Below are positions 2-41,564 of a stretch of 45,979 nt of DNA, one piece after another (the stretch's first letter is position 1; every line of letters begins with the position of its first letter). The translations under genes and the position numbers were made by a program. Source of the stretch: Candidatus Eiseniibacteriota bacterium (GTDB lineage: Bacteria; Eisenbacteria; RBG-16-71-46); assembly GCA_041492985.1 (NCBI GenBank), contig JBGPXY010000003.1:1-45979 (forward strand). Reading direction: 5' to 3'. The notes under the pieces are model-generated. The model was not told where the DNA came from. It was given only the letters and a program-made list of their open reading frames with translations, and made no database searches.

Positions 2-2116
2 GGCGGTGTTGCCCGCCGTGTCGGTCGCCCGCACCGAGACCGTGTGCTCGCCCGGCTCCACATCGGGCACCCGCGCGTGGAACCCGAGTGTGCGCTCGTC
101 CGCGAAGCCGCCGTCCGGCGTGACGGTCCGCCAGTCGCCGTTGTCGAGGGACACCTCGACCCTGGTCACCGTGCTGCTCGCATCCTCGACGCGGCCCGAG
201 ACCGCCACCGCTCCCGGCTGGGGCGAGGCCGCCAGCTCCGTCACGCTCGGCGGGGTGTTGTCGACGGTGAAGGGCGGGCTCACCGCTTCGCCGGTCAGCC
301 CTTCGCTCACGGCGTTCACACCGGCGTCCGTGGCGGTCACCTTCACCCGGTAGCGGCCGTCGGGGAGGGCGTTCGTGTCCCAAGTGAAGCCGCTCGCCTC
401 GAGATCGTCATCCACCTTGATCCAGGCCTGGGCGCCTTCGAGCTTCACCTGCACGGTGTAGCGGAGCGCGTCGCCATTGGGGTCGACGCCGCGCCACTGA
501 AGCGTGCGCAGGCCGCGCGCGTACGTCGGCAGGTCGCGCAGGGCCTTAGGTGTGGTGGCCGACGGCAACGAGTACTCGACCTTCTGCCCGCCCGGCAGGA
601 CCTGCGTCACCGCCTCGGACCGCGGCGTCATCTCGCCTTCCTTGAACCCCTGCCCCTGTGGCGCCACCACGAGGTCCTCGATCCTGGGCGGCAGGTTCTG
701 CTCGCGCCATGCCGCCTCCACGGTCTCGACATGCGGGGCGCCACCGGCCGCCGTCAGGCGCCACTGAAAGTAGCGCGCGGCCGGCGCGCCGCTGCGCGGG
801 CGCTGGTCGGTGCCGCCGCGGCTCCAGCGGCTCCACGTCGAATCCAGCGGATCGGTGTTGCCGCTGCGGGTCCAGAGCTCGAGGGCGCTCCCTCCCGCCT
901 CGCCGCGCCAGCGCACCGCGCCGAAGCGGGCGAAACGGCGGGCATCGAAGACCGGCGAGATCAACTCCCCATCCCTGGCTTTCTCGGGCCCGACCCGCCA
1001 CAGGCCGGCCGGATTCGACGTGCCGGCGATCACGCGCCCGGCGTCGTCGGCCGCCAGCGCCGTGATCTGTCCCTGCGGTCCCTGCAGCCACTGCGTGCCG
1101 CCGATCCCGCGTTCCACCAGGTAGAGCCCGGCGCGGTTCCCGGTCGCCGCGACCACGCCCGCCGGCACCCGGGCGAGCCCGTACACGAACGGCTGCGGTG
1201 ACGTCCAGACCGACGCCGCGACGCTGTCGGGCACGATGCGGTAGATCACCGCGCGGCCGCCGCTCACGGCGCTGCGGGCGGGGGCCGGCCGATCGCCCGG
1301 CTCGCCCGCGTCGTCCTCCACCGCCGAAGCGCTGAGTGCCGCGGCATAGAGCGCCCCGTCGGGTCCGATCGCGAGCGCGCGCACCTCGTCTTCGCTGGCG
1401 TCGAAGACCGTCCGCAGCTCGTGATCGTCGCCCACGCGGTAGATGCGGCCTTTCGAGTCGCCACCGGCGTAGACCGCGCCGTGTCCGTCCGCGACCAGCG
1501 AGACCAGATTGCTCTCCTCGGTGTCGAGCACCACCCGCACCTCCCCGCCGCGGATCCGCAGCAGGCGTCCCTTGGTCCCGGTCGCCGCGTACCATCCGCC
1601 GCCGGGCGCCGGCGCCAACCCCCACACGTAGCGCTCGCCGGTGCGCGCGACCAGTGCGGTATCCCCTCGGGCGCCGATGCGGTAGATCAACCCTTCGGGA
1701 CCGGTTCCGGCCAGCACGCCATCCCCGTCGACGGCGAGCGCGAGCACCTGACCCACCGGCAGACGCGCGAGGACGCGGAATCCTCCGCTCTCGCTGAAGC
1801 TCAGGATCGTCCCGCGATCCCCTCCCACCGCCACCGTCCCGTCCTTCATCACCACCACGGACCAGAGGATGCTCAGGCTCTCGGGGGCGGCGGTGAAGCG
1901 GGCGGCCGGTCCCAGCTCGAGCGCCCCGTCCGGGCGCACCACCATCCCGTGCGCTTCCGACTTCGCGTAGTCATCGGGGCCGTCGCTGATCCACCACTGG
2001 GTCTCCGCCGAATGCGCCGGGGCCGAGGCGAGGACGAGCGCGATGGCGAGCGTGGCGGCGCGCGCGCTGCGTGCGATGGCGCGCTGGGGGCATGCGATCG
2101 GTCGGCGAAGTCTCAA
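2..2116 (-). CDS. Secreted beta-propeller (WD40/NHL-like repeat) protein with C-terminal FN3/Ig-like domains; 3' end beyond window
   Basis: Not in the ORF track because it runs off the edge. Read manually: TTG at 2116 after a GGGGAGG RBS, signal peptide ...AATLAIALVLASAPAHSA|ETQWW, blade repeats ALAVDGDGVLAGTGPEGLIY and YVWGLAPAPGGGWYAATGTKGRLL, ending ...TVSVRATDTAGNTA (Ig/FN3 last strand) in the same frame. Confidence 0.8.
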   Translation of the reverse strand, partial: MRLRRPIACPQRAIARSARAATLAIALVLASAPAHSAETQWWISDGPDDYAKSEAHGMVVRPDGALELGPAARFTAAPESLSILWSVVVMKDGTVAVGGDRGTILSFSESGGFRVLARLPVGQVLALAVDGDGVLAGTGPEGLIYRIGARGDTALVARTGERYVWGLAPAPGGGWYAATGTKGRLLRIRGGEVRVVLDTEESNLVSLVADGHGAVYAGGDSKGRIYRVGDDHELRTVFDASEDEVRALAIGPDGALYAAALSASAVEDDAGEPGDRPAPARSAVSGGRAVIYRIVPDSVAASVWTSPQPFVYGLARVPAGVVAATGNRAGLYLVERGIGGTQWLQGPQGQITALAADDAGRVIAGTSNPAGLWRVGPEKARDGELISPVFDARRFARFGAVRWRGEAGGSALELWTRSGNTDPLDSTWSRWSRGGTDQRPRSGAPAARYFQWRLTAAGGAPHVETVEAAWREQNLPPRIEDLVVAPQGQGFKEGEMTPRSEAVTQVLPGGQKVEYSLPSATTPKALRDLPTYARGLRTLQWRGVDPNGDALRYTVQVKLEGAQAWIKVDDDLEASGFTWDTNALPDGRYRVKVTATDAGVNAVSEGLTGEAVSPPFTVDNTPPSVTELAASPQPGAVAVSGRVEDASSTVTRVEVSLDNGDWRTVTPDGGFADERTLGFHARVPDVEPGEHTVSVRATDTAGNTA

Positions 2117-27219: not shown

Positions 27220-29058
27220 TCAGGCCCGGGCCGCTTTGGCTTTCTTCTGGTAGACCCGATCGATGTTCCAGAGGAGCCGGTGTGGAATCACGCTCGGCTG
27301 GACGTTGCCGAACCGGTTGCTGACCGGGAGCCGCATGATCTGCGTCGGCAGCCAGATGAAGTAACACTCCTTGTTGACGAGATCCTGCATCTCCCGGGAG
27401 ACCCGCTTGCGCTCGACCATGTCGAGGGCGCGCAAGTTCGCGTCCATCAGCCGGTCGAGCGCCGCATCGCTCGCGCTCTCCGGGTGCTCCTGACGGATGT
27501 TCCAGTAGTGGGTAGGCCCACTCGATCGCCAGACGTTCTGCGACATGCCCGGGTCGGGCGGCACGCCGCTCTGGAGACCGCCCAGGATGCTCTCGTACTG
27601 AAAGTCCTCGCGGATGTTCGTGATCAGGGTGTTGAAGTCCATCCCGGTCGGGATGCACTTGATGCCGACCTTGGCGAGGTCGTCGCGGATGAAGTTGACC
27701 ATCGCCATGCGCAGCGCATTGTCACCGTTCGTCTTCATGGTGAAGCTGACCGTGTGGCCCCGCGGGTCCTCGAGGATGCCGTCGCCGTCGCGATCCTTGT
27801 AGCCGAGGCTGGCGAGCAGCCGCTTCGCCCCCTCGGGATCGTAGTCGGCGCCGGTGACCTCGGGCGTGTACCAGACCTTGTTGCCCACCGTCATGGTGGA
27901 CCAGTTCTTGACCCCGTCCCCGTAGAACGGCCCGCGGATGAGTCCCTCGCGGTCGATCGCCATCGAAACGGCGCGGCGGAACTCGCGGTCGCTGAACCAG
28001 GCGTACTTGACCTTGTCGAGCACCGGCTCTCCGACCCGCTTCCCCTTGACCGGTCGCTTCGCCTTGACGGTGTTGAGGTTGAACCAGAAGAAGCTCGAGC
28101 TCAGCGACGGACCGACGTCGTAGAGGGTGAAATCATCCGCCTTCGCCCGGTCCATGTAGGTCTTGTAGTCCTCCGGTTTCACGTTGTCGAGCCCGTCCAG
28201 GTCGCCGGCCAGGAACTGGAGCGCGGCGGTGTTCTGATCGGGCACGATCCGGAACACCAGCTCGTCGAGATAAGGCAGCCGGCGGCCCTTGGGATCGACG
28301 CCGAACCAGTACGGGTTGCGCTCGAGGACGGTCTTCTCCCCCGGGACGTACTGCTTCAGACGCCAGGGTCCACTGGTGACGAGGCTCTCCGGTGGCGTGC
28401 TCACGCTGTAGGCCGAGCCGAAGCTGCCGTTGAGGAAGGCGCCCTCGAGGATGTGCTTCGGCATGATGCGGATCGAGCCGATGATCTGCCGCAACATCGC
28501 TGAAGGGACCGCCGTCTTCACCACGATGGTGTAGGAGTCGGGGGCCGAGAACTCGAACGGCTTGCCTTCGGCCTTCAATAGATCCTGCATCGAGGGGTGC
28601 AGCGCCGGGTCGTTGATCACCCGCACCGCGAACATGAAGTCGTCGGCGGTCATCGGGTGACCGTCCGAGAAGCAGGCGCCGCGGCGCAGGTGAAAGGTCG
28701 TCGTCAGCCCATCCGGGGTCTGCTCCCAGGATTTCGCGAACACGGCGATGTCCTGCTGCGTCCCGTTGTCGTAGTCGACCACGCTGGTGAAGAGCCTGCC
28801 GTCGGTGAGGTCGGTGGACGAACTCTCGTTGGCGAGGAGGGCGTTGAACGTCCGTGGCGGAGTGGTCTGCCCGAGGACGAAGCGGCCGCCGTAGCGGCCC
28901 ACCTCTGGCATATCGACCGTCATGGTGTCCACCGGCAGCGGATTCTTGTCCACGAAGGCGGAACCGGCGAGCCCGGCACTTCCGCCGCATCCTGCCAATG
29001 TCCACGCGGCCCCGAGCAACGCCGCGACCAGCCCGAACCACTCCCTGCGACTCGACAT
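27220..29058 (-). CDS. Peptide ABC transporter substrate-binding lipoprotein (SBP family 5)
   Basis: Lipobox LAGC, FSDGHPMTADD, SGPW, LERNPYW, FRRAVSMAIDR. Confidence 0.93.
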   Translation of the reverse strand: MSSRREWFGLVAALLGAAWTLAGCGGSAGLAGSAFVDKNPLPVDTMTVDMPEVGRYGGRFVLGQTTPPRTFNALLANESSSTDLTDGRLFTSVVDYDNGTQQDIAVFAKSWEQTPDGLTTTFHLRRGACFSDGHPMTADDFMFAVRVINDPALHPSMQDLLKAEGKPFEFSAPDSYTIVVKTAVPSAMLRQIIGSIRIMPKHILEGAFLNGSFGSAYSVSTPPESLVTSGPWRLKQYVPGEKTVLERNPYWFGVDPKGRRLPYLDELVFRIVPDQNTAALQFLAGDLDGLDNVKPEDYKTYMDRAKADDFTLYDVGPSLSSSFFWFNLNTVKAKRPVKGKRVGEPVLDKVKYAWFSDREFRRAVSMAIDREGLIRGPFYGDGVKNWSTMTVGNKVWYTPEVTGADYDPEGAKRLLASLGYKDRDGDGILEDPRGHTVSFTMKTNGDNALRMAMVNFIRDDLAKVGIKCIPTGMDFNTLITNIREDFQYESILGGLQSGVPPDPGMSQNVWRSSGPTHYWNIRQEHPESASDAALDRLMDANLRALDMVERKRVSREMQDLVNKECYFIWLPTQIMRLPVSNRFGNVQPSVIPHRLLWNIDRVYQKKAKAARA

Positions 29059-29093
29059 GGACCTCTCCCCCCGACGCGTTGTCAGCGTGCGAT

Positions 29094-29894
29094 TTAGACC
29101 GCGGGCGCAGTATAGGAATCGCTTGTCGGACCGGTCAACAGAAAGGCTCCCGCCGCGGCATCCACCCGCCGCGACCGCGGGCCCAGCTCGGCGGCGAGTG
29201 AATCGGCCCAGCGTTCGAGCGCCGGCTCGAGTCCGATCCAGGGCGCCGCACCCGCCGTGGCGGACGCGAGCGCCCCTCGCACGCGCTCACGGCGGGACTC
29301 GCTCAACGGGAGGTAGTCGGCCAGCCGCAGGTGCCCGGCCCCCAACAGCACGCTTCCCTGCTGGAGCAGGGCCCGGGCGGTCCGCCGCTGGGCGCTGCCG
29401 ACCAGCTTGCGACCGCCGAGCACCACCTCGTGGCGCGCCGTGGAGGCGAAGCAGGGCGCGGCCGGGGCGATCCGGCCGCGTCCGCCCGGAGCGTCGGAGC
29501 TTTCCGATCCGTCACGCGGCGCGAACGCCGCCGGCACGCCGAGGCGCAGGAGCGAGCGGACGATCAGCGCACTGGCGCGGGCATACGCCTCGCTCAGGCC
29601 GCCTCCCCAGTCCCGGTCGTCGAGCGACGCCGCCAGCGAGTACGTCCACTCCTCGGCGTGGAAGATGGCCCGTCCGCCAGTGGGGCGCGACGCCCAGGAA
29701 ATATCGTCCGATGCGCAGCGCGCGAGATCCAGCTCGCGCGCGGGCTCCTGGTTGAGCCCCAGGGTGATGCCGTGCGGCACGAATCGGAACAGGCGCAGAA
29801 CCGGCTCGGCCCCCGCCTCGGCGGCCGCGAGGAGTGCCGTGTCGCGGCGCATGTTCTCGCCCGGATCATGGGCACCGTCGCACCAGAGGATCAC
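29094..29894 (-). CDS. Lipoate-protein ligase / octanoyltransferase (LplA/LipM-like catalytic domain only)
   Basis: NMRRDTALL, LRLF, RPTGGRAIFH, PCF, KLVGSAQRR, LLQQGS; GTG start after GAGG. Confidence 0.88.
   Translation of the reverse strand: MILWCDGAHDPGENMRRDTALLAAAEAGAEPVLRLFRFVPHGITLGLNQEPARELDLARCASDDISWASRPTGGRAIFHAEEWTYSLAASLDDRDWGGGLSEAYARASALIVRSLLRLGVPAAFAPRDGSESSDAPGGRGRIAPAAPCFASTARHEVVLGGRKLVGSAQRRTARALLQQGSVLLGAGHLRLADYLPLSESRRERVRGALASATAGAAPWIGLEPALERWADSLAAELGPRSRRVDAAAGAFLLTGPTSDSYTAPAV
29109..29138 (-). promoter_or_regulatory. sigma70-type promoter of the peptide ABC operon (inside the ligase 3' end)
   Basis: TTGACC-18 nt-TATACT, about 50 nt upstream of the SBP ATG. Confidence 0.6.
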
Positions 29895-29968
29895 GACCGC
29901 CTCGAGACTCCGGAGACCGCGAACCCCCGGCTGCGTGTCGCCGGGGGCGGGAGCCGCGACATGGGTCC

Positions 29969-30661
29969 TTACCGAAGTCCGAGCCAGTCCTCGAGCAGGA
30001 ACTGGAACCGGCCGATCAGGAGCGAGATGCGCGACATCACCGTGTACCCGTAGCCGGCGCCGAAAGACACCATCAGGAAGAAGATGCCCAGCTTGGAGGC
30101 CACCGCAAGCCCACCCTTGTGCTCGCGGCTGTAGAAGAAGTAGAGCAGCGAGGTGATGAGGCCGACCGCGAACACCATGGCATTGAGGCTGGCGCCCAGG
30201 TCGCCGGAGATCCACAGCGGCTGCAGGCTCCCCTGGACCTGAGCCACGAAGTCGGCCTGCGCCGCTCCGGTGGTGCGGATGCCGGCGTAGACGCCGATGA
30301 TGACGGCGAGCGCCCAGCGCGAAAGCCAGCCGATCTTCCCGAACAGGCGGGTGAAGAGCAGCAGTCCGAGGATGCCGGGCACCACCAGGAAGATGCGGTA
30401 GTCGCCGAGACGTGGCAGGAAGAGCGATTGCAGGCCGGCCGGACCGGACGTGTTCACGAACGTATGGCTCAGGGGCTCCAGGAGATTCGGGACGATGACC
30501 GTCCAGAAGTTGAGGACGATGTAGTAGCCGGCCGAGACGCCGACGAACAGGTGTTCGGCGAACCGGTAGAACGGGTTGTCCTTGTACAGGAAGCTGAAGA
30601 TGCAGAGCGTGAGGAAGGCCCCCAGCCAGACGCTCAGATCGGGGCTCACATGGAAGCTCAC
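29969..30661 (-). CDS. Uncharacterised polytopic membrane protein (about 6 TM)
   Basis: 230 aa hydrophobic; motif-like SFLYKDNPFYRFAEHLFVGVSAGY and FGAGYGYTVMSR; GTGA overlap with the upstream gene. Confidence 0.85.
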   Translation of the reverse strand: MSFHVSPDLSVWLGAFLTLCIFSFLYKDNPFYRFAEHLFVGVSAGYYIVLNFWTVIVPNLLEPLSHTFVNTSGPAGLQSLFLPRLGDYRIFLVVPGILGLLLFTRLFGKIGWLSRWALAVIIGVYAGIRTTGAAQADFVAQVQGSLQPLWISGDLGASLNAMVFAVGLITSLLYFFYSREHKGGLAVASKLGIFFLMVSFGAGYGYTVMSRISLLIGRFQFLLEDWLGLR

Positions 30662-31485
30662 GCCGGCTCCCGCTTCTTCACCCGTTGGATGATGTTGCCG
30701 AGGACGATACAGAACGCCACGAAGATGTGGGCGAGCGACTGGGCATCCATGCCCTTGGTCGCCGTGCCCTTCTCGCCGCGCGCCTTCTCGTACTCCGCCG
30801 CCCCCGCCATGCCACCCAGCAGCCCGCGCAGCTGCCCCGACTGGAGATAGGGGTAGTATTCGGGCGCGCTCACCGCGGTGACCCCCGCGACCATGGGAAG
30901 ATGGAACCGCGAGTTCACCTGCTGGACCCATTCCTTGGTGCCGGGGAATCCGGCCGAGATGTTCACGAGCAGCGGGAAGCTCGAGTAGTCACGCACCCCC
31001 ATCATCAGCGGCAGCGTGTTGGTCTCGTTGCCGCGGTAGTCGCGCGGGAACGCGTTCTTGATCCCCTGCCCCATCAGCACCATGACCGCGTCATCCCCGG
31101 CCTTGTAGCCGAGATTGACCCAGTCCACGCCATAGCGCTTGTTCGGAAACTCGCGCGCGACGTCGTTGAGCGTCGCCTCGACCAGCCCCGGCCCGGCGTT
31201 CCACAGCACCGTCACCACCACCTTGCAGTCCTTGCGCAGGAGCTGGCGGAACGCGGTGCGATTCATCGGCACCATCTCGGGCCTGGCACTCGGGTCGTAG
31301 TCGCACGACATGAGCACGGTCGAGCCGTTGGGGAGGGCCTCGATCGCGTCGTTGAAGGCCTGGACCGGCGGCGAGACCTTGAGCGGCAGGCCGGCCGGGA
31401 AGATGAGCGGACCGGCGACCAGGAGTCCCATGACCAGGAACAGCCAGCGCCGGTCGAGCGTTTCGAGCCCGGTGGTCCACGACAT
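30658..31485 (-). CDS. Uncharacterised membrane-anchored alpha/beta protein (TM-domain-TM)
   Basis: N-terminal TM after DRR, alpha/beta core (YGVDWVNLGYKAG, GLLGGMAGAAEYE), C-terminal TM followed by QRVKKR. Confidence 0.85.
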   Translation of the reverse strand: MSWTTGLETLDRRWLFLVMGLLVAGPLIFPAGLPLKVSPPVQAFNDAIEALPNGSTVLMSCDYDPSARPEMVPMNRTAFRQLLRKDCKVVVTVLWNAGPGLVEATLNDVAREFPNKRYGVDWVNLGYKAGDDAVMVLMGQGIKNAFPRDYRGNETNTLPLMMGVRDYSSFPLLVNISAGFPGTKEWVQQVNSRFHLPMVAGVTAVSAPEYYPYLQSGQLRGLLGGMAGAAEYEKARGEKGTATKGMDAQSLAHIFVAFCIVLGNIIQRVKKREPA

Positions 31486-31488
31486 CGT

Positions 31489-32166
31489 CTAGTCCTCCCC
31501 GCTCAGGTAGGAACGCTCGATGCCGAGGATGACCCGCAGGCCGGTGGCCATCACCCCGAGTGCGGCGCCGATCAGGATGGCGCGCTTCGCGGTGTTCTGC
31601 GGGACCGACATGATCCACTCCTGGATGGTGCTCAGATGCAGCGTGTGCGGCACGCCGGGCAGCCACTTGGCCTGGAACAGCCAGTCGCTCAGCAGGTCGC
31701 CGAGCGGCACACGGCCCAGCATGACGATCAGCGCCGCGACCGCCAGCAACCCTGCCTCGACGGTCCGGATGCGGAAGGCGCGGAACGCCGCGGAGGCGAT
31801 GAAGAAGGCGAGCAGCGCGAACATGGTGGACGACATCGGCGAGTACACCCAGTCGTAGATCCACTTCGAGCGCATGGTCGGATTGAGGAACCCCTTCCCC
31901 TCGATCAGGCCGATGACCACCGTCGCCAGCAGCGAGACCACCAGGACGATCTTGTACGGCCAGCCCGGCTTCTTCTTGTAGATCGCGTCGAAGTTCACCC
32001 GCAGCGCGTTCGCCCCGCCCAGCACGTAGCCGAACCCCACCAGGATGACCGCGCTCGCCTGCAGGAAGTCCGCCGGGACGCTCACCCACTCGTGCGGCAC
32101 GAAGAACGACAGGATCATGAACAGCCCGATCACCGCCGTGATGAAGAGAGGGACTTCGCGTTTCAC
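31489..32166 (-). CDS. Uncharacterised polytopic membrane protein (5-6 TM)
   Basis: AGGAGG RBS; PMSSTMFALLAFFIASAAFRAFRIR, AKRAILIGAALG...LRVILGIER. Confidence 0.87.
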   Translation of the reverse strand: MKREVPLFITAVIGLFMILSFFVPHEWVSVPADFLQASAVILVGFGYVLGGANALRVNFDAIYKKKPGWPYKIVLVVSLLATVVIGLIEGKGFLNPTMRSKWIYDWVYSPMSSTMFALLAFFIASAAFRAFRIRTVEAGLLAVAALIVMLGRVPLGDLLSDWLFQAKWLPGVPHTLHLSTIQEWIMSVPQNTAKRAILIGAALGVMATGLRVILGIERSYLSGED

Positions 32167-32176
32167 CGACCGCCTC

Positions 32177-33391
32177 CTACTGGGTCATCATCCACTTCGT
32201 GAAGCCGTGCAGGTTGAGGGTCTCGAGGATGCACCCCACGATCACCGAGGCGATGATGATGATCTTCATGAGGTCGGTGCCCTTGAGCCCGCCCACCAGC
32301 TTGGGCTCACCGGACAAGTAGGCGCTCGCTGCGTATAGCTCTTCGCCGATGAGCGTGTAGTCGCAGGCGACCACGAAGAACGGCAGCTGGTGCACGTTCG
32401 CCGTGCCGGCCACCTGGATCGCCCCGGTCGCGAACCCGGTCTCGGCGAGCAGCAGCGACTCGGCGAAGAACGACCCCATGAAGATGTGGGCCGCCGGCCG
32501 ATCGCGGAGCATGATGCCGGTGACCGCCGCCACGTAGGCGAACTGCTCCGGCGAAACGAAGCGCACGCTGTCCGGGTCGTACGCCTCGGGCCGGCCGGCG
32601 TGCAGATAGCCGGCCTTCACCATCTCCTCGGCGATGGTGAACGGGATCGGATAGGTCACCGGGACGGTGATCGGCGTCTCGTAGCGCGCGGTCAGCTTGG
32701 CGACGCTCTCGAGGATCACCAGCGAGGCCACGGTCTGGATGTCGCTGATGTCCTGGATGCCGGGCACGTAGAGCACCGAGCGGCCCATCTCGGTGGCGCG
32801 GCCGATCGCTTCCTCGATCGCGTCGATGCCCGGGATGCGGCGGACGAACGGCTTCTTCCCCGCCTGCGCGCTGGCGATGTAGTAGAGGACGAAACCGAAG
32901 AACAGGATCGTGCCCACCAGGACGCTGCCGCGGGTCTGGTTGACCCACTGCGAGGTCGCCCGCACCGGGCCGGTCACGCTGCCGGCCAGCGTCAGCCCCC
33001 CGGGCCCCTGGGCGTCGATGCGGTAGAAGTACTCGGCGCCACGCGCCACGCCCTGGTCCATCTTGGAGATGGTGCCGGCCGCGACCGAATCCACCACGAC
33101 CCACGGACCGCCCGGGCTCTCGGCGCGCGCCACGTAGTACTGGGTGACGACGAGGCTCTTGGGGACGTCGTCGGGGGACGCTTTCCAGTCGAGCTGGATG
33201 CCGCGTCCCGCGTCGTTGGCGACATCGAGGGCGACCAGCCCCGAGGCGGGTCGGGGCGTGGGCATGGTTGTGGCCGCGATCGAATCCCGGTGGGTGGTCT
33301 GGGCCGCGGCGCTGGCGGCGAGGAGGAAGGCGGACGCGAGCGCGATGGCCCAGCCGGTGCCCGGCGCATCGCAGCGTGGCCTTCGTGGCAC
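32177..33391 (-). CDS. Signal peptide + FN3 domain + TM + DUF6754-like alpha/beta domain + TM
   Basis: AAGGAGG RBS 5 nt before GTG 33391 (ATG 33454 is an alternative); FN3 pattern (LDW...YYVAR...YFYRI); RRIPGIDAIEEAIGRATEMG, FFAESLLLAE, DYTLIGEELYAASAYL. The DUF name is from memory and not verified. Confidence 0.82.
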   Translation of the reverse strand: MPRRPRCDAPGTGWAIALASAFLLAASAAAQTTHRDSIAATTMPTPRPASGLVALDVANDAGRGIQLDWKASPDDVPKSLVVTQYYVARAESPGGPWVVVDSVAAGTISKMDQGVARGAEYFYRIDAQGPGGLTLAGSVTGPVRATSQWVNQTRGSVLVGTILFFGFVLYYIASAQAGKKPFVRRIPGIDAIEEAIGRATEMGRSVLYVPGIQDISDIQTVASLVILESVAKLTARYETPITVPVTYPIPFTIAEEMVKAGYLHAGRPEAYDPDSVRFVSPEQFAYVAAVTGIMLRDRPAAHIFMGSFFAESLLLAETGFATGAIQVAGTANVHQLPFFVVACDYTLIGEELYAASAYLSGEPKLVGGLKGTDLMKIIIIASVIVGCILETLNLHGFTKWMMTQ

Positions 33392-33470
33392 CGGTACCTC
33401 CTTGCCCTGGACACCGCGGGTCCGGCCAGCGGTCGGCGTCGCCCCCTCGTCCATCGCGTGAACCGGCGCG

Positions 33471-33538: not shown

Positions 33539-34666
33539 TCAGTCCTCGATCAGCTCCACGTTCGCGCGCGGCACCACCGCCCGCGAGCGGTCGTCGGCGA
33601 ACTCGACCGTCATGACCCGGACCCGCGCTTCGGTCTCCAGCGGCTGGAGCTCCGGCGGCAGCTCGACCACGCGCGCGATGCGACCGAAGTACGGTTCGCG
33701 GATGACGCGCAGCACCGAGCCGATCTCCAGTCCCAGGGTCGCCGCCACGGCGCGCTGTCCGCCGGGCTGGCCGACGGCGCGCGGGATCACGATCTCGGGA
33801 CGCATGACGCCGGCCCGGATCTGCGTCGCGCCGCTCACCGACGCCTGATGCCCTTCGTGGGATCCCAGGAGCTTCCACGTGCGCTCGGCCATCCGGATGC
33901 GGCCGAAGCCCTCGGTGAGCACGAGCGTGAAGCCCAGATCCTCCGCGCCGGTGATCGCGACGCCGAGATCGCGACCCAGCAGCTGGCGCAGGTCGCGGTC
34001 GTCGAATCCTCCCACGACCACCGCCGCGATCTCGAGCTCGCGCGCGCGCATGAGCGTGGCGTGCGAGACGTAGGAGCCGCCCACGACCACACAGCCCTTG
34101 TGGGCGCTGGTGAGCTTCGCGGCGGACAGCTCCTCGTCGGGCGAGCCGGCCACCACGCGCAGCGCGCCGAAGGTCTCGCCGCCGACGCCGAAGATGCCCT
34201 GCATCAAGGCACCCTCGGCCTCGACGATGACGCCCTCCTCGGGGAGCACTTCGGCCACGCGCCCCTGCACGTACGCCTCGATCTGCACGGGGATGGGCGG
34301 CTCGCGCAGGATGAGCTGCCCGGTGATGGGCGAGACGCTCTCGATCGTGCCGTCGGCGGGAGCCGTGGCCTTCTGACGGACCAGCCCGAACAGGCTCTTG
34401 CCCTCGGCGATCACCGCGCTCTTGCGGATGGGCGCGCCGACCGGCACGGTGAGCGCGTCGGGCACGCGCGCGGGATCGATCGCCAGCTTGGCGGCGATGT
34501 TGACCGTCTGGACGTTGCCGGGCAGCTGGGTGCGTGCGACCACGGTGTCGGCCGACACCTGGTCGCCGACCGCGACCAGCACCTCGCCCTTGAGCGGCAG
34601 CCGGCGTTCGCGTCGCAGCACCGCGTGGTCGGTGACCCGGAGACCCGGCGTGTAGGCGTGCGCCAT
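33539..34666 (-). CDS. Uncharacterised soluble protein with repeated barrel-sandwich hybrid (lipoyl/RnfC-N-like) motifs and a C-terminal KOW/SH3-like domain
   Basis: 375 aa; GEVLVAVGDQV, PVGAPIRKSAVIA, APADGTI, AYVQGRV; IGSVLRVIREPYFGRIARV; TGATG overlap with the glmL-like stop. Confidence 0.8.
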   Translation of the reverse strand: MAHAYTPGLRVTDHAVLRRERRLPLKGEVLVAVGDQVSADTVVARTQLPGNVQTVNIAAKLAIDPARVPDALTVPVGAPIRKSAVIAEGKSLFGLVRQKATAPADGTIESVSPITGQLILREPPIPVQIEAYVQGRVAEVLPEEGVIVEAEGALMQGIFGVGGETFGALRVVAGSPDEELSAAKLTSAHKGCVVVGGSYVSHATLMRARELEIAAVVVGGFDDRDLRQLLGRDLGVAITGAEDLGFTLVLTEGFGRIRMAERTWKLLGSHEGHQASVSGATQIRAGVMRPEIVIPRAVGQPGGQRAVAATLGLEIGSVLRVIREPYFGRIARVVELPPELQPLETEARVRVMTVEFADDRSRAVVPRANVELIED

Positions 34667-36501
34667 CACACCTCCCGCGGGTAGAGGTCGAGCGCCTGGT
34701 TCCACGCCCGCAGCCGCGCGATGCGCTCGTGCGGAACGGCGGGCAGCGTGAACGGCCGCCGTCCGCGCGCATCGACGATGAGCCCCACCACACCCCCGGT
34801 GACATCCGCCTCGAGCGGCTTCCCCTTGCCGGCGCCGAGATCAAAGCCGCGCTCGGGGAAGGCGGTGAGGCGCACGAGCCCCTGCTCGGGCAGCGGGAGC
34901 AGCGCCAGGTCCCCGAACGCCACGCGCTTCGCCACCGGCGGACCGCCCTGCGGGGTCAGCTCGATGGTCATGCACGGCTGCCCGACCTTGGCGCTGCCGA
35001 TCGGCGCCAGCACCGCGCCCAGCCGGACCAGGCAATCGCGTTCGAACACCTGGGTCGCGGCTTCCTCGTGCACGGTCGAGAGCACGCCGAGTTGGGGGGC
35101 CATGAAGATGCTGTCGACCGCGAGGTGGGTGAGCCCTTCGGGCAGGAACGCGTCCACCATCATGAGCGCGGCCTGGACGCGCCGTGGCGCGTGCGAGAGC
35201 ACGCCTCCCGATCCGACCAGGAGCCCCAGGTCGCCCAGATTCACCAGGGTGGCGCCGCTCTCGGTCTGCGACATGATGTCCGAGATGGTGCGCTCGGTCT
35301 GCACACCCTTGAGCCCGACGGCCAGCGCCTTGTGCTGCTCGAAGGCGAGCCGGAGCGCTTCGCGGGCGATCGCCTGCTCGATGACCAGATCCTCGAGACT
35401 CTGGGGGATGGTCGTCGGCCGGATCATCTTGTTCTTCACCCGGTTCCTCAGGTCGACCTCGTCCACCGCGAAGGGCACCCAGCGGAGGATGTTCTCGATG
35501 CCGGCCTCGGCCATGACGTTCGAGACCGAGTAGCTCATGCCGAGGTTGGCGGAGACCGTGCGGTTGAAGACGCCCTGAAACACCGAGAACACGTCGGTGG
35601 TCGCCCCGCCGATGTCCACGCCCACCACCGCGAGCTGGTCGCGTTTGGCGATCGCCTCGATGATGATGCCGACCGCCCCCGGCGTCGGCATGATCGGCAC
35701 CGGCGACCAGGTCATGAGCTTCTTGTATCCGGGCGCATGCGCCATGACGTGCTCCATGAAGAGCTCGTGGATGGCGTCGCGCGCGGGCCCGAGGTTCTCG
35801 CGCTCCATCGCCGGGCGCAGGTTCGGCACCACGCTCAGCGCGGTGCGTTCGCCGAGCGTCTCGCGCACCACGCCGGCGGCGTCCTTGTTGCCGGCGTAGA
35901 TGACCGGCAGCCGGTAGCCGGCGCCCAGCCGCGCCTTGGGATCGGCGGCGAGCAGGATCTCGGCCATCTCGGCGACACGGCGCACGTCCCCGCCGTCCGT
36001 GCCCCCGGAGAGCAGGATCATGTCGGGCCGCAGCTGGCGCAGTCGGCGGATCTTCTCGTGCGGACGCCGTCCGTCGTTGAGGGCGATGACGTCCATCACG
36101 ATCGCCCCCGCCCCCAGCGCCGCGCGTTGCGCGCTCTCGCCCGTCATCTGCAGCACCAGCCCCGAGACCATCATCTGCAGCCCGCCGCCGGCACTCGAGG
36201 TGGATACGTAGAGATCGACGCCCTCCTCGCCCGCCTGCGGGGTGATGATGCGCTCGCCGTCGAGGATGCGGCGTCCGGCCAGTTCCTCCACCTCGCGCAC
36301 CGCGTTCAGCACGCCGCGCGTGACGTCTTCGAAGGGCGCCTCGACGGTGGTCGGCGCCTCGCCACGCACGATCAGGCGGTAGCCGTCGCCGCGCTTCTCG
36401 ATCAGGATCGCCTTGGTGGTCGTGGACCCGCAATCGGTGGCGAGGATGGAACGGATGGATGCGGGGTCGATCGGGCTGGCCTCCATGGTCTCCGGCGTCA
36501 C
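34666..36501 (-). CDS. GlmL-like (glutamate mutase accessory 'L' family) ASKHA-fold ATPase with a C-terminal extension
   Basis: DCGSTTTK (phosphate 1), SSAGGGL, GGTDGG, IYAGN, PTPGAV, DIGGATTDVFS (phosphate 2), RTVSANLGMSYS, GSGG. Confidence 0.85.
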   Translation of the reverse strand: MTPETMEASPIDPASIRSILATDCGSTTTKAILIEKRGDGYRLIVRGEAPTTVEAPFEDVTRGVLNAVREVEELAGRRILDGERIITPQAGEEGVDLYVSTSSAGGGLQMMVSGLVLQMTGESAQRAALGAGAIVMDVIALNDGRRPHEKIRRLRQLRPDMILLSGGTDGGDVRRVAEMAEILLAADPKARLGAGYRLPVIYAGNKDAAGVVRETLGERTALSVVPNLRPAMERENLGPARDAIHELFMEHVMAHAPGYKKLMTWSPVPIMPTPGAVGIIIEAIAKRDQLAVVGVDIGGATTDVFSVFQGVFNRTVSANLGMSYSVSNVMAEAGIENILRWVPFAVDEVDLRNRVKNKMIRPTTIPQSLEDLVIEQAIAREALRLAFEQHKALAVGLKGVQTERTISDIMSQTESGATLVNLGDLGLLVGSGGVLSHAPRRVQAALMMVDAFLPEGLTHLAVDSIFMAPQLGVLSTVHEEAATQVFERDCLVRLGAVLAPIGSAKVGQPCMTIELTPQGGPPVAKRVAFGDLALLPLPEQGLVRLTAFPERGFDLGAGKGKPLEADVTGGVVGLIVDARGRRPFTLPAVPHERIARLRAWNQALDLYPREV

Positions 36502-36809
36502 CCCTTGCCGCGGGCCGCGCGCTTGAGACGCGCCGCGTCCTCCCCCGCCTCGATGCGGAGGATGAGCGCTTCGATCGCGTCCCGTCGCTCGAGCAGGGCG
36601 GTGACGCGCTGGTAGTCGGTGAAGCGGAACAGGGACTGGATCATCGGCTCGAAGAAGATGAGCGCCTGGCTGGCGATCACCGACAGCGGCTTGGCGGTCT
36701 CGAGGGTGAGGATCGCCGGCACCGACATGTGCAGCTCGACCACGCGGGTGGCGACCCGCTCGATCAACGCCTGGTCGGCGGCGGACAGCGACGGGGCGTC
36801 AGAGGCCAT
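36498..36809 (-). CDS. Small uncharacterised helical protein (103 aa)
   Basis: VPAILTLETAKPLSVIASQALIFFEP...LLERRDAIEALILRIE; overlaps both neighbours. Confidence 0.75.
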   Translation of the reverse strand: MASDAPSLSAADQALIERVATRVVELHMSVPAILTLETAKPLSVIASQALIFFEPMIQSLFRFTDYQRVTALLERRDAIEALILRIEAGEDAARLKRAARGKG

Positions 36810-37218
36810 GGTCGTGGAGTCGCGCCGCGAGATCGGCGAGCAGGGCGTCACGGTCGCGCGAGGGCAATGGCAGGAGCAGGCCGCGGTAGGGATCGAGCCA
36901 GTGCGGTCGCGCGTAGGGCGAGACCAGCACGCCCGCGGGGCGGGTCGCCGCCCGTCGCAGCGTCGCCCACGGCCGGCGGACGGTGCCGAGCGGGCCGCGT
37001 CGCTCGACGCCTTCCTCGTCCACCCGGCAGCGCGCCGGCGAGAGCACCGGCGACAGGGTCCCCAGCACCGCCAGGCCGAGCACCACCCGGACCGCCAGCG
37101 GTTCGCTCAGGCTGGCCACCACCAGGCAGATCCCCAGCGTCATGAGCGCGCCCGCGCCCGCCGCCAGCGGCCGGTCGCGCCACGGGTTGAAGGACCATTC
37201 GAGCGCGGCCGCGCTCAT
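36799..37218 (-). CDS. Small membrane protein (2 TM + short beta, PH-like domain)
   Basis: Two hydrophobic segments then CRVDEEGVE...RRPW...GVLVSPY; ATGA overlap with the gcvPB stop. Confidence 0.72.
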   Translation of the reverse strand: MSAAALEWSFNPWRDRPLAAGAGALMTLGICLVVASLSEPLAVRVVLGLAVLGTLSPVLSPARCRVDEEGVERRGPLGTVRRPWATLRRAATRPAGVLVSPYARPHWLDPYRGLLLPLPSRDRDALLADLAARLHDHGL

Positions 37219-38717
37219 GCGGGACTCGGGGTCTCGGGGACCGGGGCCGGGCTCACCCGTCCCGGGCTGCGCCAGTGCAGCACCAGCTCGCGGGCGGCGC
37301 GGCCCTCGTCGAGGCGGCTGACCGGCGTGGTGAGCGGGGCCTCGAGCAGGAGCTTCGGGTTCTCGCGCGCCTCCTGGGCGATGCGCTCCATCGCCGCCGC
37401 GAAGTGGTCGAGACGGTCGAGGGTCTCGGTCTCGGTGGGCTCGATCATGAGGGCCTCTTCGACGATGAGCGGGAAGTAGACCGTCGGCGCGTGCACGCCG
37501 AAGTCCAGCAGCCGCTTCGCCACGTCGAGCGTCTTGACGCCGTGCTTGCGCAGCGCGCGCCCGGAGAGCACGAACTCGTGCATGCAGTGCTCGGGGTGCG
37601 GAAGCTCGTAGGTCTTCGCCAGCCGCCGCATGAGGTAGTTCGCGTTGAGGATCGCGGTGCGGCTGGTCTCGCGCAGCCCCTCGGGGCCGAGCGTCGAGAG
37701 ATAGACGAGCGCGCGCACGAGCATGCCGAAGTTGCCGTGGAACGAATGCACCCGCCCGATCGAGTGCGGGCGGTCGTGGCTGAGACGGAGCATGCCCTCC
37801 CGTTCCACCACCACCGGCACCGGGAGGAAGGGCTCGAGGTGGGCGGCGACCGCGACCGGTCCGGCCCCCGGGCCGCCGCCTCCGTGCGGGGTCGAGAAGG
37901 TCTTGTGCAGGTTGATGTGCATGACGTCGAAGCCGAGGTCCCCGGGTCGGACCAGCCCGATCAGCGCGTTCAGGTTCGCGCCGTCCATGTAGACCTGCGC
38001 GCCGGCCTCGTGCGCGATCCTCGTGATCTCCCGCACCCGGGACTCGAACAGCCCGAGCGTGTTGGGAACCGTCAGCATCACCGCGGCGGTCCGGTCATCG
38101 AGGGCCTTGCGCAGCACCTCGAGGTCGACGGTGGCGTGCTCCTCCGAGGCGATCGTGACCGCCTCGTAGCCCACCAGGTTCACGCTCGCGGGATTGGTCC
38201 CGTGGGCCGAGTCGGGAACGATCACCCGTCGGCGGCGGTCCCCCTCGCCGCGCGAGCGGTGCCACGCGCGGATCATGAGCAGGCCGGTGATCTCGCCCTG
38301 GGCGCCCGCGGCCGGCTGCGTGCCAACCGCCGCGAACCCGGTGATCTCGGCGAGGGCCAATTGCAGATCTCGGATCACCCGCAGCGCTCCCTGGTTCGCT
38401 TCGTCGGGCGCCAGGGGATGCGCGAGTGCCAGACCCGCGAGGGCGGCAATCTCGTCGTTGATCTTGGGATTGTGCTTCATGGTGCAGGAGCCCAGCGGGT
38501 AGAAGCCGCGGTCGATGTGGTGGTTGAGGGTCGAGAGCTCGACGAAATGGCGCACCACCTCGGGCTCGCTCACCTGGGGCAGCCGAAGCTCCGCGCGCAG
38601 GCGGGCGCCGGGCAGGCGATCGGCGAGCGGCCGCACCGGGACGTCGCACGCCGGCAGCGCCGGGCCCCGGTGCCCGGGGCCACCCTGCTCGATGAGGAGA
38701 CGGCGCGGCATCGTCAT
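37215..38717 (-). CDS. gcvPB: Glycine dehydrogenase (decarboxylating) subunit 2
   Basis: YPLGSCTMKHNPK, QPAAGAQGE, SAHGTNPAS, PLP Lys in HINLHKTFSTPHGGGGPG, EPTETE. Confidence 0.96.
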   Translation of the reverse strand: MTMPRRLLIEQGGPGHRGPALPACDVPVRPLADRLPGARLRAELRLPQVSEPEVVRHFVELSTLNHHIDRGFYPLGSCTMKHNPKINDEIAALAGLALAHPLAPDEANQGALRVIRDLQLALAEITGFAAVGTQPAAGAQGEITGLLMIRAWHRSRGEGDRRRRVIVPDSAHGTNPASVNLVGYEAVTIASEEHATVDLEVLRKALDDRTAAVMLTVPNTLGLFESRVREITRIAHEAGAQVYMDGANLNALIGLVRPGDLGFDVMHINLHKTFSTPHGGGGPGAGPVAVAAHLEPFLPVPVVVEREGMLRLSHDRPHSIGRVHSFHGNFGMLVRALVYLSTLGPEGLRETSRTAILNANYLMRRLAKTYELPHPEHCMHEFVLSGRALRKHGVKTLDVAKRLLDFGVHAPTVYFPLIVEEALMIEPTETETLDRLDHFAAAMERIAQEARENPKLLLEAPLTTPVSRLDEGRAARELVLHWRSPGRVSPAPVPETPSPA

Positions 38718-40051
38718 CGCCCGCCCCCGGCTCGCTTCAACACGTCGATCCATCGCTCGATCTCGGCCAGGCTGCGTTGCTCGGTGACCGCGACCAGCAG
38801 CCACCGCCGCCATTCGGGGCGGAACTGCCCGAGGGCGACCCCCGGGAGCACGCCGACCTGCCGGCCCACCCGCACGACCTCGTCGGCATCGACCGGGCAC
38901 TCGAGCACGAACTCCCGGAAGAACGTGCCTGCGTGCGCCTGGGCGTAGCCCGGCAGCGCCGCGGCGAGCGCGGCCGCATGGTGCGTCTTCTGCACGCACG
39001 ACTCCGCCACCTCGGTGAGCCCGAGCTTCCCCAGCAGGCCGAGATAGATGGTGGCGCGCAGGGCGAGCAGGCCCTGGTTGGTGCAGATGTTCGAGGTCGC
39101 CTTCTCGCGCCGGATGTGCTGCTCGCGGGTCTGGAGCGTCAGCACGAAGCCGCGCCGGCCATGACGATCGACGGTCTGCGCCGCGATCCGCCCCGGCATG
39201 CGCCGGACCAGCCCCTGGGCGCACGCGAAGAAGCCGAGCAGTGGACCACCGAAGGAGGGCGGGTTCCCGAGGCACTGCCCCTCGCCGACGACGATGTCGG
39301 CGCCCGTAGCGCCCGGCGGCTCCAGCAGCGCGAGCGCGATCGGATCGCAGACCGCGATCGCGAGGGCTCCCGCCTGATGGGCGAGCGCGTGGATCGCCTG
39401 CGGGTTCTCGAGCAGGCCGAAGAAGTTCGGGTGCTGGTAGAGGACGGCCGCCACGTCGGGCCCGACGGCGGCGGTGAGATCCTCGAGGGCACAGATCCCC
39501 GCACGATCCGCCACCACGACGACGTCGCGCTCCAGATAGGTGCGCAGGACCTCGAGATAGTTCGGGTGGAGGGCTCCGGCGACGACGATACGCGCGCGCC
39601 CGGTCTGGTGTCGGGCCAGCAGGGCCGCTTCCACCGCCGCGGTGGCGCCATCGTAGAGCGAGGCGTTCGCGACGTCGGTCCCGGTCAGCTCGACGATCAT
39701 GCTCTGGAACTCGAACATCGCCGTGAGCGACCCCTGCGCCACCTCGGGCTGGTAGGGCGTGTAGGCGGTCGCGAACTCCGAGCGCATGGCGATGGCGTTC
39801 AGCGCGGCGGGGATGTAGTGGTCGTACAGCCCCCCACCCATGAAGGACGCCGTGTGGTCGGCATCGTTCATGCGCGCCCAGGCGCCGAAGCGGCGTCGGA
39901 CCTCGATCTCCGAGAGCGGTCCCGGCACCTCGAGCGCGCGCTTCAGGCGCACCTCTTCGGGCACCGAGGCGATGAGGTCCTCGAAGCGCGGCACGCCGAT
40001 GGCGGCCAGCATACGCTCCTCCTCGCCGCGCGAGAGGCCGATGAAGCTCAC
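38714..40051 (-). CDS. gcvPA: Glycine dehydrogenase (decarboxylating) subunit 1
   Basis: TAYTPYQPEVAQG, NASLYDG, LTLQTREQHIRREKATSNICTNQ. Confidence 0.96.
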   Translation of the reverse strand: MSFIGLSRGEEERMLAAIGVPRFEDLIASVPEEVRLKRALEVPGPLSEIEVRRRFGAWARMNDADHTASFMGGGLYDHYIPAALNAIAMRSEFATAYTPYQPEVAQGSLTAMFEFQSMIVELTGTDVANASLYDGATAAVEAALLARHQTGRARIVVAGALHPNYLEVLRTYLERDVVVVADRAGICALEDLTAAVGPDVAAVLYQHPNFFGLLENPQAIHALAHQAGALAIAVCDPIALALLEPPGATGADIVVGEGQCLGNPPSFGGPLLGFFACAQGLVRRMPGRIAAQTVDRHGRRGFVLTLQTREQHIRREKATSNICTNQGLLALRATIYLGLLGKLGLTEVAESCVQKTHHAAALAAALPGYAQAHAGTFFREFVLECPVDADEVVRVGRQVGVLPGVALGQFRPEWRRWLLVAVTEQRSLAEIERWIDVLKRAGGGR

Positions 40052-40437
40052 GCGTGGTCCTGATCGACGAGCTGATCGTATTCGTCGGCGTCGAGGAGCT
40101 TCTTGATGTCGTCGGCGTGATCCGGCCTGATCCGGATTATCCAGCCCTCGGCGAACGGCGACTCGTTGACGAGCCCCGGGTTGTCCGCCAGCGCGTCGTT
40201 GACCGCCACCACCTGGCCGGCGACCGGGGCGTACAGGTCGCTCACCGTCTTCACCGCCTCGACCACGCCGAAGGGCTTCTTGGCGTCGAGCCGACGGCCG
40301 ATCTCCGGAAGCTCCACGAACACCACGTCCCCCAGCTGGTCGGTGGCATAGCTGGTGATGCCGACGGTGATCACGCCGCCCTCCAACCGCGCCCACTCGT
40401 GCTCGGCGGTGTATCGCACATCCTCTGGGTACGACAC
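40048..40437 (-). CDS. gcvH: Glycine cleavage system H protein
   Basis: YTAEHEW, GITSYATDQLGDVVFVELP, lipoyl Lys in VEAVKT, APVAG, GWI. Confidence 0.96.
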   Translation of the reverse strand: MSYPEDVRYTAEHEWARLEGGVITVGITSYATDQLGDVVFVELPEIGRRLDAKKPFGVVEAVKTVSDLYAPVAGQVVAVNDALADNPGLVNESPFAEGWIIRIRPDHADDIKKLLDADEYDQLVDQDHA

Positions 40438-40460
40438 GGATCCTCCCTGGTCACGCCGCC

Positions 40461-41564
40461 TCAGCGGCGCGAGCCCCGCGTGTAGAACGGCCGCTTCACG
40501 ACGCGTGTGGCGATGCGACTGGGACCGGCGAGCACGTCGAGCGGCGTGTCGAGCGCGCTCACGCCGGTCTCGACGTAGGCCATGGCGATGGCGCACTCGA
40601 GGCTGGGACTGAACGTCCCACTCGTGACCCGCCCCACCGGACGCCCTCCGGACTCGACCGTCATCCCGTGCCGCGGGACGCGACGGCCTTCCGCCTCCAA
40701 CCCGACCAGCTTCCGGGTCAGACCCTGCTCCTTCTGCTTCGCGAGCGCGTCGCGCCCGGAAAAGGCGCCCTTGCTCAGCTTCACCGTCCAGCCGAGCCCC
40801 GCCTCGAGCGGCGTGGTCGTCTCGTCGATGTCGTTCCCGTAGAGCATGTAGGCCATCTCGAGGCGCAGGGTATCGCGGGCGCCCAGCCCGACCGGCTCGA
40901 TCCCCAGCGGCTGTCCCGCGCCCATCGCCCCGGCCCAGACGGCCGCCGCGTCGCCGCCCTTCATGTAGAGCTCGAAGCCGTCCTCTCCCGTGTACCCGGT
41001 CCGGGCGATCACCGCCGGGACCCCGAACAAGGGTCCCTCGACGAACCGGTTCGAAGGCATGAGGAGTGCCTCGTCGGGGACGTGGCCCCGGAGCACCTCG
41101 GCGGCCTTCGGCCCCTGGATGGCGAGCAGGGCGGTCTCCTCCGAGCGATCGGTCAGCTCGACCCCGGCCGGGCACTGCGCCTTCAGCCAGGCGAGATCCT
41201 TGGCGATGTTGGATGCGTTCACAACCAGCATGAACTCATCGGCGGAACGGTAGACGTAGAGGTCGTCGACGATGCCCCCGTCGGGCCGGCACATGACGCT
41301 GTACATGGCCTGCCCGACCTCCATCCCCGCCACGTCATTGGCGAGCGCCCCGTCGAGGAACCGCGTCGCCCCGGCACCCCGTACCTTGAACTCGCCCATG
41401 TGGGAGATGTCGAACAGCCCGACACCGGTCCGAACCACCTGATGCTCGCGCACGTCGCCCGTGTACCGCAGGGGCATCTCGAAGCCCGCGAAGTCCACGA
41501 GCCTGGCGCCGGCGGCCTTGTGAAATGCATGGAACGGCGTGTGTTTGAGGGTGGAAACGGACAC
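40461..41564 (-). CDS. gcvT: Glycine cleavage system aminomethyltransferase
   Basis: GLFDISHMGE, GIVDD, QGP, RTGYTGEDGFE, GLGARDTLRLE. Confidence 0.96.
   Translation of the reverse strand: MSVSTLKHTPFHAFHKAAGARLVDFAGFEMPLRYTGDVREHQVVRTGVGLFDISHMGEFKVRGAGATRFLDGALANDVAGMEVGQAMYSVMCRPDGGIVDDLYVYRSADEFMLVVNASNIAKDLAWLKAQCPAGVELTDRSEETALLAIQGPKAAEVLRGHVPDEALLMPSNRFVEGPLFGVPAVIARTGYTGEDGFELYMKGGDAAAVWAGAMGAGQPLGIEPVGLGARDTLRLEMAYMLYGNDIDETTTPLEAGLGWTVKLSKGAFSGRDALAKQKEQGLTRKLVGLEAEGRRVPRHGMTVESGGRPVGRVTSGTFSPSLECAIAMAYVETGVSALDTPLDVLAGPSRIATRVVKRPFYTRGSRR

Follow-up and report, generated by a model that had tools for sequence, protein, structure and literature searches.

A 45,979-nt contig of Candidatus Eiseniibacteriota bacterium (contig JBGPXY010000003.1 of assembly GCA_041492985.1; 70% G+C), referred to here as the window, carries three adjacent minus-strand genes of one operon that encode proteins of 404, 225 and 275 amino acids (aa), with a gene for a 230-aa protein coming fourth. 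These proteins are designated A, B, A′ and C, respectively. A and A′ both hold a large alpha/beta domain between two transmembrane (TM) helices, and they are probably distinct subunits of one four-subunit membrane module within an uncharacterised seven-gene system. A first-pass annotation of the window had taken A and A′ for paralogues inserted into the membrane in opposite orientations; the strings and segments that it quoted from both proteins all lie where it had placed them, and orientation is the better-supported half of its idea. None of the sequence or profile tests supports an origin of A and A′ by gene duplication. The four genes of the module are as follows:

32177..33391, minus strand: subunit A, 404 aa; open reading frame (ORF) with a PF20539 match, comprising signal peptide, FN3-like part, TM1, DUF6754 domain and TM2
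31489..32166, minus strand: subunit B, 225 aa; polytopic, with about six TM helices and the N terminus predicted inside
30658..31485, minus strand: subunit A′, 275 aa; TM1, Rossmann-like alpha/beta domain (predicted outside) and TM2
29969..30661, minus strand: subunit C, 230 aa; polytopic, with the N terminus predicted outside and a GTG start

The junctions between these genes are tight, with gaps of 10 nt between A and B and 3 nt between B and A′, while the stop codon of A′ and the start codon of C overlap in the sequence GTGA. Homology to C begins at the same GTG in other loci. Among 80 loci fetched via alignment of the DUF6754 gene, the complete and ordered set A-B-A′-C is present in 70; in the other 10, the sequence stops short of a full set, at a contig end in eight of them and at the end of the available sequence in two (L039 and L076). 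Of the 121 genomes sampled from the phylum, 109 carry the gene set, often in multiple copies, and it is also found in many other, mostly uncultured, phyla. Each genome has between 0 and 9 matches to A and to A′, and the two numbers agree in 107 of the 121 genomes (r 0.98), or in 106 of 120 if the unpublished genome G015 is left out. Given these equal counts and the common A-B-A′-C module, the A and A′ genes are obligate partners. In loci of the Zixibacteria/Ignavibacteria type (L054, L056–L060, and L074), the A-B-A′-C module is repeated in tandem two or three times (e.g., L054:1192-12136); the repeated unit is the whole module and never a part of it, and the copies are 35%–60% identical to the proteins of the window.

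A is a clear member of the uncharacterised family DUF6754 (PF20539), matching positions 2–256 of the 257 in the Pfam model at 376.9 bits (cut-off 27; E 4.9e-113), and 7991 homologues of it were found. When its own genome was searched with PF20539, the A gene alone was matched (378.5 bits), even at E ≤ 10, and A′ is hence not a member. A′ itself matches no Pfam family at E ≤ 5 and no NCBIfam family; a search among representatives of 50%-identity clusters gave its own family 4036 members at E ≤ 0.001. Direct comparison of A with A′ by BLASTP gave a best E of 2.8. Profile comparison by hhalign gave a probability of 1.9% for 117 diverse A′ sequences against 24 DUF6754 domains, 1.6% for profiles of both families derived from the loci, 1.3% for A′ against 89 DUF6754 sequences (including tandem paralogues 41%–46% identical), and 1.45% for A′ against 207 DUF6754 sequences that included other phyla; in all four runs, only TM helix was paired with TM helix. 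For the soluble domains freed of their TM helices, the forward score was 13.9, compared with 17.0 for a reversed control and 13.8 ± 2.1 (maximum 21.6) for 30 block-shuffles. Adding secondary structure from the models raised the full-length forward comparison to 2.5%–5.8%, against 0.1%–0.2% for the reversed one, with no gain of the soluble-only comparison over its own reversed control.

Searches across the 121 genomes point the same way. The A model has 283 matches and the A′ model 281, counts that would roughly double if either model also found the other family, and we thus infer from the counts that the families do not detect each other at E ≤ 0.001. In the ESM Atlas, searched by protein language model, the neighbours of A′ were solely its own unnamed family, and for the DUF6754 domain, setting aside its own family, there was no usable match. 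A duplicated module, with (A+B) corresponding to (A′+C), was also considered and rejected: B and C should in that case be homologues, but hhalign gave 0.2% for this pair. All ten hhalign pairs among B, C, A′, A and the 388-aa product of a neighbouring gene lie at or below 1.6%. At the level of these sequence tests, a common TM-domain-TM layout and two short motif likenesses are no evidence of common descent, and the likeness of the motifs themselves does not rise above chance in the BLASTP, hhalign or soluble-domain comparisons. The paralogy proposed by the first-pass annotation thus finds no support in BLASTP, hhalign, the soluble-domain controls or the own-genome search by hidden Markov model.

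The opposite orientation of the two proteins fares better. The segments concerned are the following:

33299..33391, minus strand: A, residues 1–31, N-terminal signal-like segment ending in AAAQ (hydropathy window 12–30)
32954..33250, minus strand: A, residues ~48–146, FN3-like extracytoplasmic part (source names of homologues; PF00041 in longer homologues)
32864..32932, minus strand: A, residues ~154–176, TM1 (hydropathy; helix 12–36 of the domain model)
32276..32863, minus strand: A, residues 177–372, DUF6754 alpha/beta domain, predicted cytoplasmic (charge bias; model), with the motifs IDAIEEAI at 189–196 and LIGEELYAASAYL at 347–359
32207..32275, minus strand: A, residues ~373–395, TM2 (hydropathy; helix 223–251 of the model)
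31447..31455, minus strand: A′, residues 11–13, twin-arginine-like D-R-R motif just before TM1 (family alignment)
31381..31449, minus strand: A′, residues ~13–35, TM1 (hydropathy; helix 12–28 of the model)
30745..31380, minus strand: A′, residues 36–247, alpha/beta domain, with FNDAIEAL at 44–51 and LLGGMAGAAEYE at 222–233
30682..30744, minus strand: A′, residues ~248–268, TM2, followed by the basic tail QRVKKR (hydropathy, model and family alignment)

In the A family, lysine plus arginine (K+R) is higher on the domain-side flanks in 78 of 78 members, with means of 4.0 and 2.2 compared with 1.8 and 0.5 on the outer flanks; in A itself, TM1 is followed by GKKPFVRR, and KGTDLMK precedes TM2. This bias, together with signal peptides and FN3 or propeller heads, is consistent with an arrangement in which the N terminus is out, the domain in, and the C terminus out. 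Among homologues that start with M, a hydrophobic 12-mer lies within the first 50 aa in 73 of 88 of near-equal length and in 95 of 105 long ones; for A, an alternative ATG start at 33454 would yield 425 aa. N-terminal to TM1, FN3 domains or propellers of the PQQ/BamB type occur in long homologues, and DUF6754 forms the end of the protein in 118 of 120 of these (P0416 is an exception, having a 333-aa tail that is listed with RHS repeats [RHS/YD]). The signal peptide and FN3 domain that the first-pass annotation had assigned to A hold up insofar as the signal-like segment is present and FN3 occurs in homologues; for A itself, Pfam makes no FN3 call at E ≤ 0.01. Two apparent departures from this arrangement were discarded: an FN3-like domain that seemed to follow DUF6754 in P0470 and P0472 is actually N-terminal, and P0503, with HEAT repeats before DUF6754, begins with a lipoprotein-type signal and is no counter-example to an outside N terminus.

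For A′, the charge bias is reversed: among 117 diverse full-length members, K+R is higher on the termini in 104, lower in six, and tied in seven, and the basic C-terminal tail averages 3.5–3.9 K+R. Natural variants of the protein also argue that its termini are inside and its domain is outside. The domain of P0271 contains an insert of CARDB-type repeats about 550 aa long (three hydrophobic windows in this insert are barely above threshold and would be beta strands of the repeats), and P0356 has two zinc ribbons at its N terminus. P0332 is a natural fusion of A′ with C, in which exactly one extra TM helix joins the two parts, in agreement with the N-out bias of C. In a further variant, P0339, the domain is tandemly doubled between the same two TM helices. 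On the basis of K+R bias and fusions, all of which is computational, the domains of A and A′ probably lie on opposite faces of the membrane.

Several near-invariant residues lie at TM2 in both families: K370, D373, and K376 just before it and G386 and E390 within it in A, and Q/S before it and H253 and N264 within it in A′. The conserved polar and charged residues among them suggest contacts, or a polar path, within the membrane.

Structures were compared as AlphaFold models, that of DUF6754 being built from only 24 rather similar sequences. The A′ model has a predicted local distance difference test (pLDDT) score of 97.2 and consists of TM1, six beta strands alternating with helices, and TM2. 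The order in the DUF6754 model is TM1, helix-strand-helix-strand-helix-strand-helix, an uncertain part, strand-strand-helix, and TM2. Between the TM helices lie about 196 residues in A and about 212 in A′, and, as modelled, both domains would be three-layer Rossmann-like alpha/beta sandwiches. The nearest solved structures differ for the two models. Foldseek matched the A′ model to halves of GT-B structures only (E 1.6e-4, TM-score 0.3) and found no match for the DUF6754 model at E ≤ 0.001. The best 50 VIA-align entries per model have none in common between A and A′ (with the DUF6754 model at pLDDT 68.2); A′ reaches a best Z of 10.3 against solved Rossmann-like proteins, and its neighbours in this search include FNR-type structures. 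A sequence search of the PDB found no solved relative of A′, DUF6754, the 388-aa protein or the ATPase described below: A′ and the 388-aa protein matched nothing at E ≤ 1 and the ATPase nothing at E ≤ 0.01, and DUF6754 matched only pyruvate kinase, at E 0.7. The first-pass annotation had proposed that the two domains be compared by profile and by Foldseek; both are alpha/beta, the profile comparison stays at 1.3%–1.9%, and the Foldseek lists overlap in 3wdl/3wdm alone.

Three further genes complete the seven-gene set:

33539..34705, minus strand: 388-aa cytoplasmic partner protein, its gene overlapping the 3′ end of the ATPase gene
34666..36501, minus strand: GlmL/MutL-like actin-fold (ASKHA) ATPase, 611 aa (PF13941, E 7.8e-123)
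36498..36851, minus strand: small protein of 117 aa, encoded at the module's head (ORF and locus comparison; no family found)

The ATPase gene lies directly upstream in 55 of the 80 loci, and the gene for the 388-aa protein does so in 63. PF13941 matches the ATPase over its whole length, with scores of 215.5 bits for the NCBIfam model GlmL (NF040745; cut-off 475) and 197.9 bits for Or-4 (NF040744; cut-off 600). A search of this genome, which is 70% complete, found no glutamate mutase E subunit (PF06368). The 388-aa protein has only sub-threshold Pfam matches to Biotin_lipoyl and PEP-utilizers (E 0.05) in a search at E ≤ 5. The PEP-utilizers match, to the mobile domain, falls on its residues 204–233, which read GxVVVGG-x-x-V-S-H-A...GVAAVVVGG, with invariant glycine-rich flanks. 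A phospho-histidine relay was considered for this protein and rejected, the histidine of VSHA being kept in only 24 of 55 homologues. An NqrA/RnfC-like identity was not confirmed, there being no RnfC_N or NQRA match at E ≤ 5.

On one side, the set is flanked by gcvT-gcvH-gcvPA-gcvPB (37215-41564) and on the other by genes for an LplA-like ligase and a family-5 solute-binding protein (27220-30215), all on the minus strand. Upstream gcvT and gcvH are present in 36 of the 80 loci, and LplA-like matches downstream in 49; none of the tandem-module loci of the Zixibacteria/Ignavibacteria type has gcv genes. Within the module, A is far better conserved than A′, with identities to other phyla of 48%–60% and 33%–48%, respectively, and the mean column identity of the DUF6754 domain is 71% (24 sequences). 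B is syntenic across the fetched loci and matches no Pfam family at E ≤ 5. The identity of an Rnf/Nqr-type polytopic subunit was tried for both B and C and rejected, no such Pfam match being found. The last 25 residues of C form a conserved basic amphipathic tail with a summed K+R frequency of 3.2, which does not fit a simple six-TM model with the N terminus outside; the TM helices of C may be odd in number, or one of its helices may lie at the membrane surface.

If A and A′ are distinct subunits of one module, A would be a helical hairpin whose termini both lie outside and whose highly conserved domain lies in the cytoplasm, where it could meet the ATPase pair. A′ would be a hairpin whose termini both lie inside and whose Rossmann-like domain faces outward, beside the FN3-like head of A, while B and C would make up the membrane body. 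ATP-driven changes in the cytoplasmic ATPase and its partner would then be passed to the A domain, through the TM bundle of A, B, A′ and C, and on to the outward domains. The outcome would be transmembrane mechanotransmission or transport of some substrate.

Several points weigh against this reading and are taken here together with the alternatives. Next to the observed gene architecture, co-occurrence, lack of detectable homology, and computed topology, the physical assembly of the subunits, their coupling to the ATPase, and their function are purely what we infer. A and A′ may instead be ancient paralogues, one TM-domain-TM ancestor having been duplicated, fixed in opposite orientations, and diverged beyond recognition; such common descent is unlikely, although several observations agree with it. 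The proteins are of similar size and the same layout and co-occur one to one. The first seven secondary-structure elements after TM1 are identical in order, and the motif pairs fall in equivalent elements of the models (the domain helices nearest to TM1 and to TM2); the pLDDT of the DUF6754 model (68.2, with residues 149–208 below 50) makes fold assignment unsafe. Aligned greedily by hhalign, the two profiles run collinearly for 214 columns (21% identity), with the first motif paired in the way that the first-pass annotation had it; the score of this alignment is equally non-significant, and residues that are nearly invariant in one family do not coincide with those of the other. An archaeal phosphopantothenate synthetase (3wdl/3wdm), with weak E-values, is the sole overlap of both Foldseek lists. 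Forward comparisons do exceed reversed ones when structure is added to the full-length profiles, yet every probability stays at or below 5.8%, and the soluble-domain score equals that of the shuffled controls and falls below the reversed one. The inferred lack of cross-detection and the value for B against C also count against paralogy. A further version, in which a dual-topology protein was the ancestor of both A and A′, its soluble alpha/beta domain, some 200 residues long, came to serve on both faces, and (A+B) and (A′+C) are inverted halves, seems slightly less probable still.

The topology has its own weak points. ORFs of A′ rebuilt in full from the loci have K+R higher on the termini in 57 of 80 cases, with 13 lower and 10 tied, and the bias is absent from tblastn fragments from the loci, which mostly lack the basic tail (26 with more, 42 with fewer, and 14 ties of 82); the charge signal of A′ is hence only moderate. 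It is very unlikely, nevertheless, that both domains lie on the same side of the membrane, one charge-bias reading being wrong and A and A′ being two similar-looking subunits. The purely computational nature of the topology, the fairly basic flank before TM2 of A′ (mean 2.7 K+R), the reverse bias in those 13 of 80 ORFs and in six of the 117 diverse members, and the poor fit of the charged C-terminal tail of C would all favour a common side. The uniform bias of A with its signal peptides and exported-type N-terminal domains speaks against it, as do the basic C-terminal tail of A′, its CARDB insert and zinc ribbons, and the extra TM helix of the A′-C fusion, which matches the N-out bias of C. 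More probable than a common side, albeit still doubtful and behind both forms of shared ancestry, is a redox or ion-translocating complex in which A′ is a cofactor-binding Rossmann domain exported by the twin-arginine translocation (Tat) system and anchored at both ends, and for which the lipoyl-linked operon context would mirror the substrate. The Tat motif is S/T-R-R-x-F-L-K, placed before a moderately hydrophobic segment. Directly before TM1, A′ has a near-invariant [LI]-D-R-R-[WI]-[IV]-[FY], with RR in 96 and D11 in 106 of 117 members, and TatC is encoded in the same genome; RR is replaced in the other 21, no Pfam or NCBIfam signal model matched A′, and the segment that follows is strongly hydrophobic (mean Kyte–Doolittle [KD] hydropathy of the best 15-mer 2.81), like an ordinary TM anchor. 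D-R-R may perhaps be a mere conserved cytoplasmic anchor. The FNR-type structural neighbours of A′ would suit a cofactor-binding role, but its conserved positions include no glycine-rich dinucleotide loop or cysteine cluster, and no Pfam or NCBIfam model matched A′. In this phylum, the module does sit between gcvT-H-PA-PB and the LplA-like ligase gene; the gcv surroundings are absent from the Zixibacteria/Ignavibacteria-type loci, whereas the ATPase gene is the constant neighbour.

How far the four-subunit module differs from known systems can be judged from three comparisons. Oppositely oriented homologous pairs include Fluc heterodimers, SMR-type pairs, NqrD/NqrE, and RnfA/RnfE, and, to our knowledge, the members of such antiparallel pairs are small, polytopic and homologous and lack large soluble domains; the hallmark of transporter architecture that the first-pass annotation saw in A and A′ does not follow from their layout. 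A and A′ resemble these pairs in being encoded in the same operon, in their opposite K+R bias, and in their strict co-occurrence. They differ in that the partners of the known pairs are recognisable homologues, whereas homology between A and A′ is not detectable, and in that A and A′ each consist mostly of one large soluble domain, on different sides of the membrane as predicted. On both counts, A and A′ are not classed with the antiparallel homologous pairs.

The ATPase resembles GlmL/MutL, the glutamate mutase accessory protein, and Or-4 in its full-length PF13941 match, and differs from them in falling below the equivalog cut-offs and in having membrane proteins as its fixed neighbours. MacB, FtsEX, and LolCDE, the mechanotransmission members of the ATP-binding cassette (ABC) family, combine a cytoplasmic ATPase with membrane subunits in which two TM helices enclose an extracytoplasmic domain some 200 residues long. 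The TM-domain-TM layout of A′ is the same, a likeness that may hold in principle only: the ATPase here is actin-fold rather than ABC, none of these proteins is among the best 50 VIA matches of A′, and no family model matched. No literature on DUF6754, PF20539 or PF13941 was found by full-text search, supplements not being covered.

The system is far from any described kind, and its value lies in the system itself, the paralogue claim being unproven. Were A and A′ mirror-image paralogues after all, they would represent a new route of membrane-protein evolution; were they derived from a dual-topology ancestor, they would be the first antiparallel paralogue pair built on large soluble domains and the core of a machine that is widespread and linked to an actin-fold ATPase. 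As it stands, the combination of one very conserved domain inside, a variable domain outside, and an actin-fold ATPase as neighbour suggests a coupling of ATP to the outside of the cell that is unlike ABC transporters, the phosphotransferase system (PTS), Rnf/Nqr, and secretion systems.

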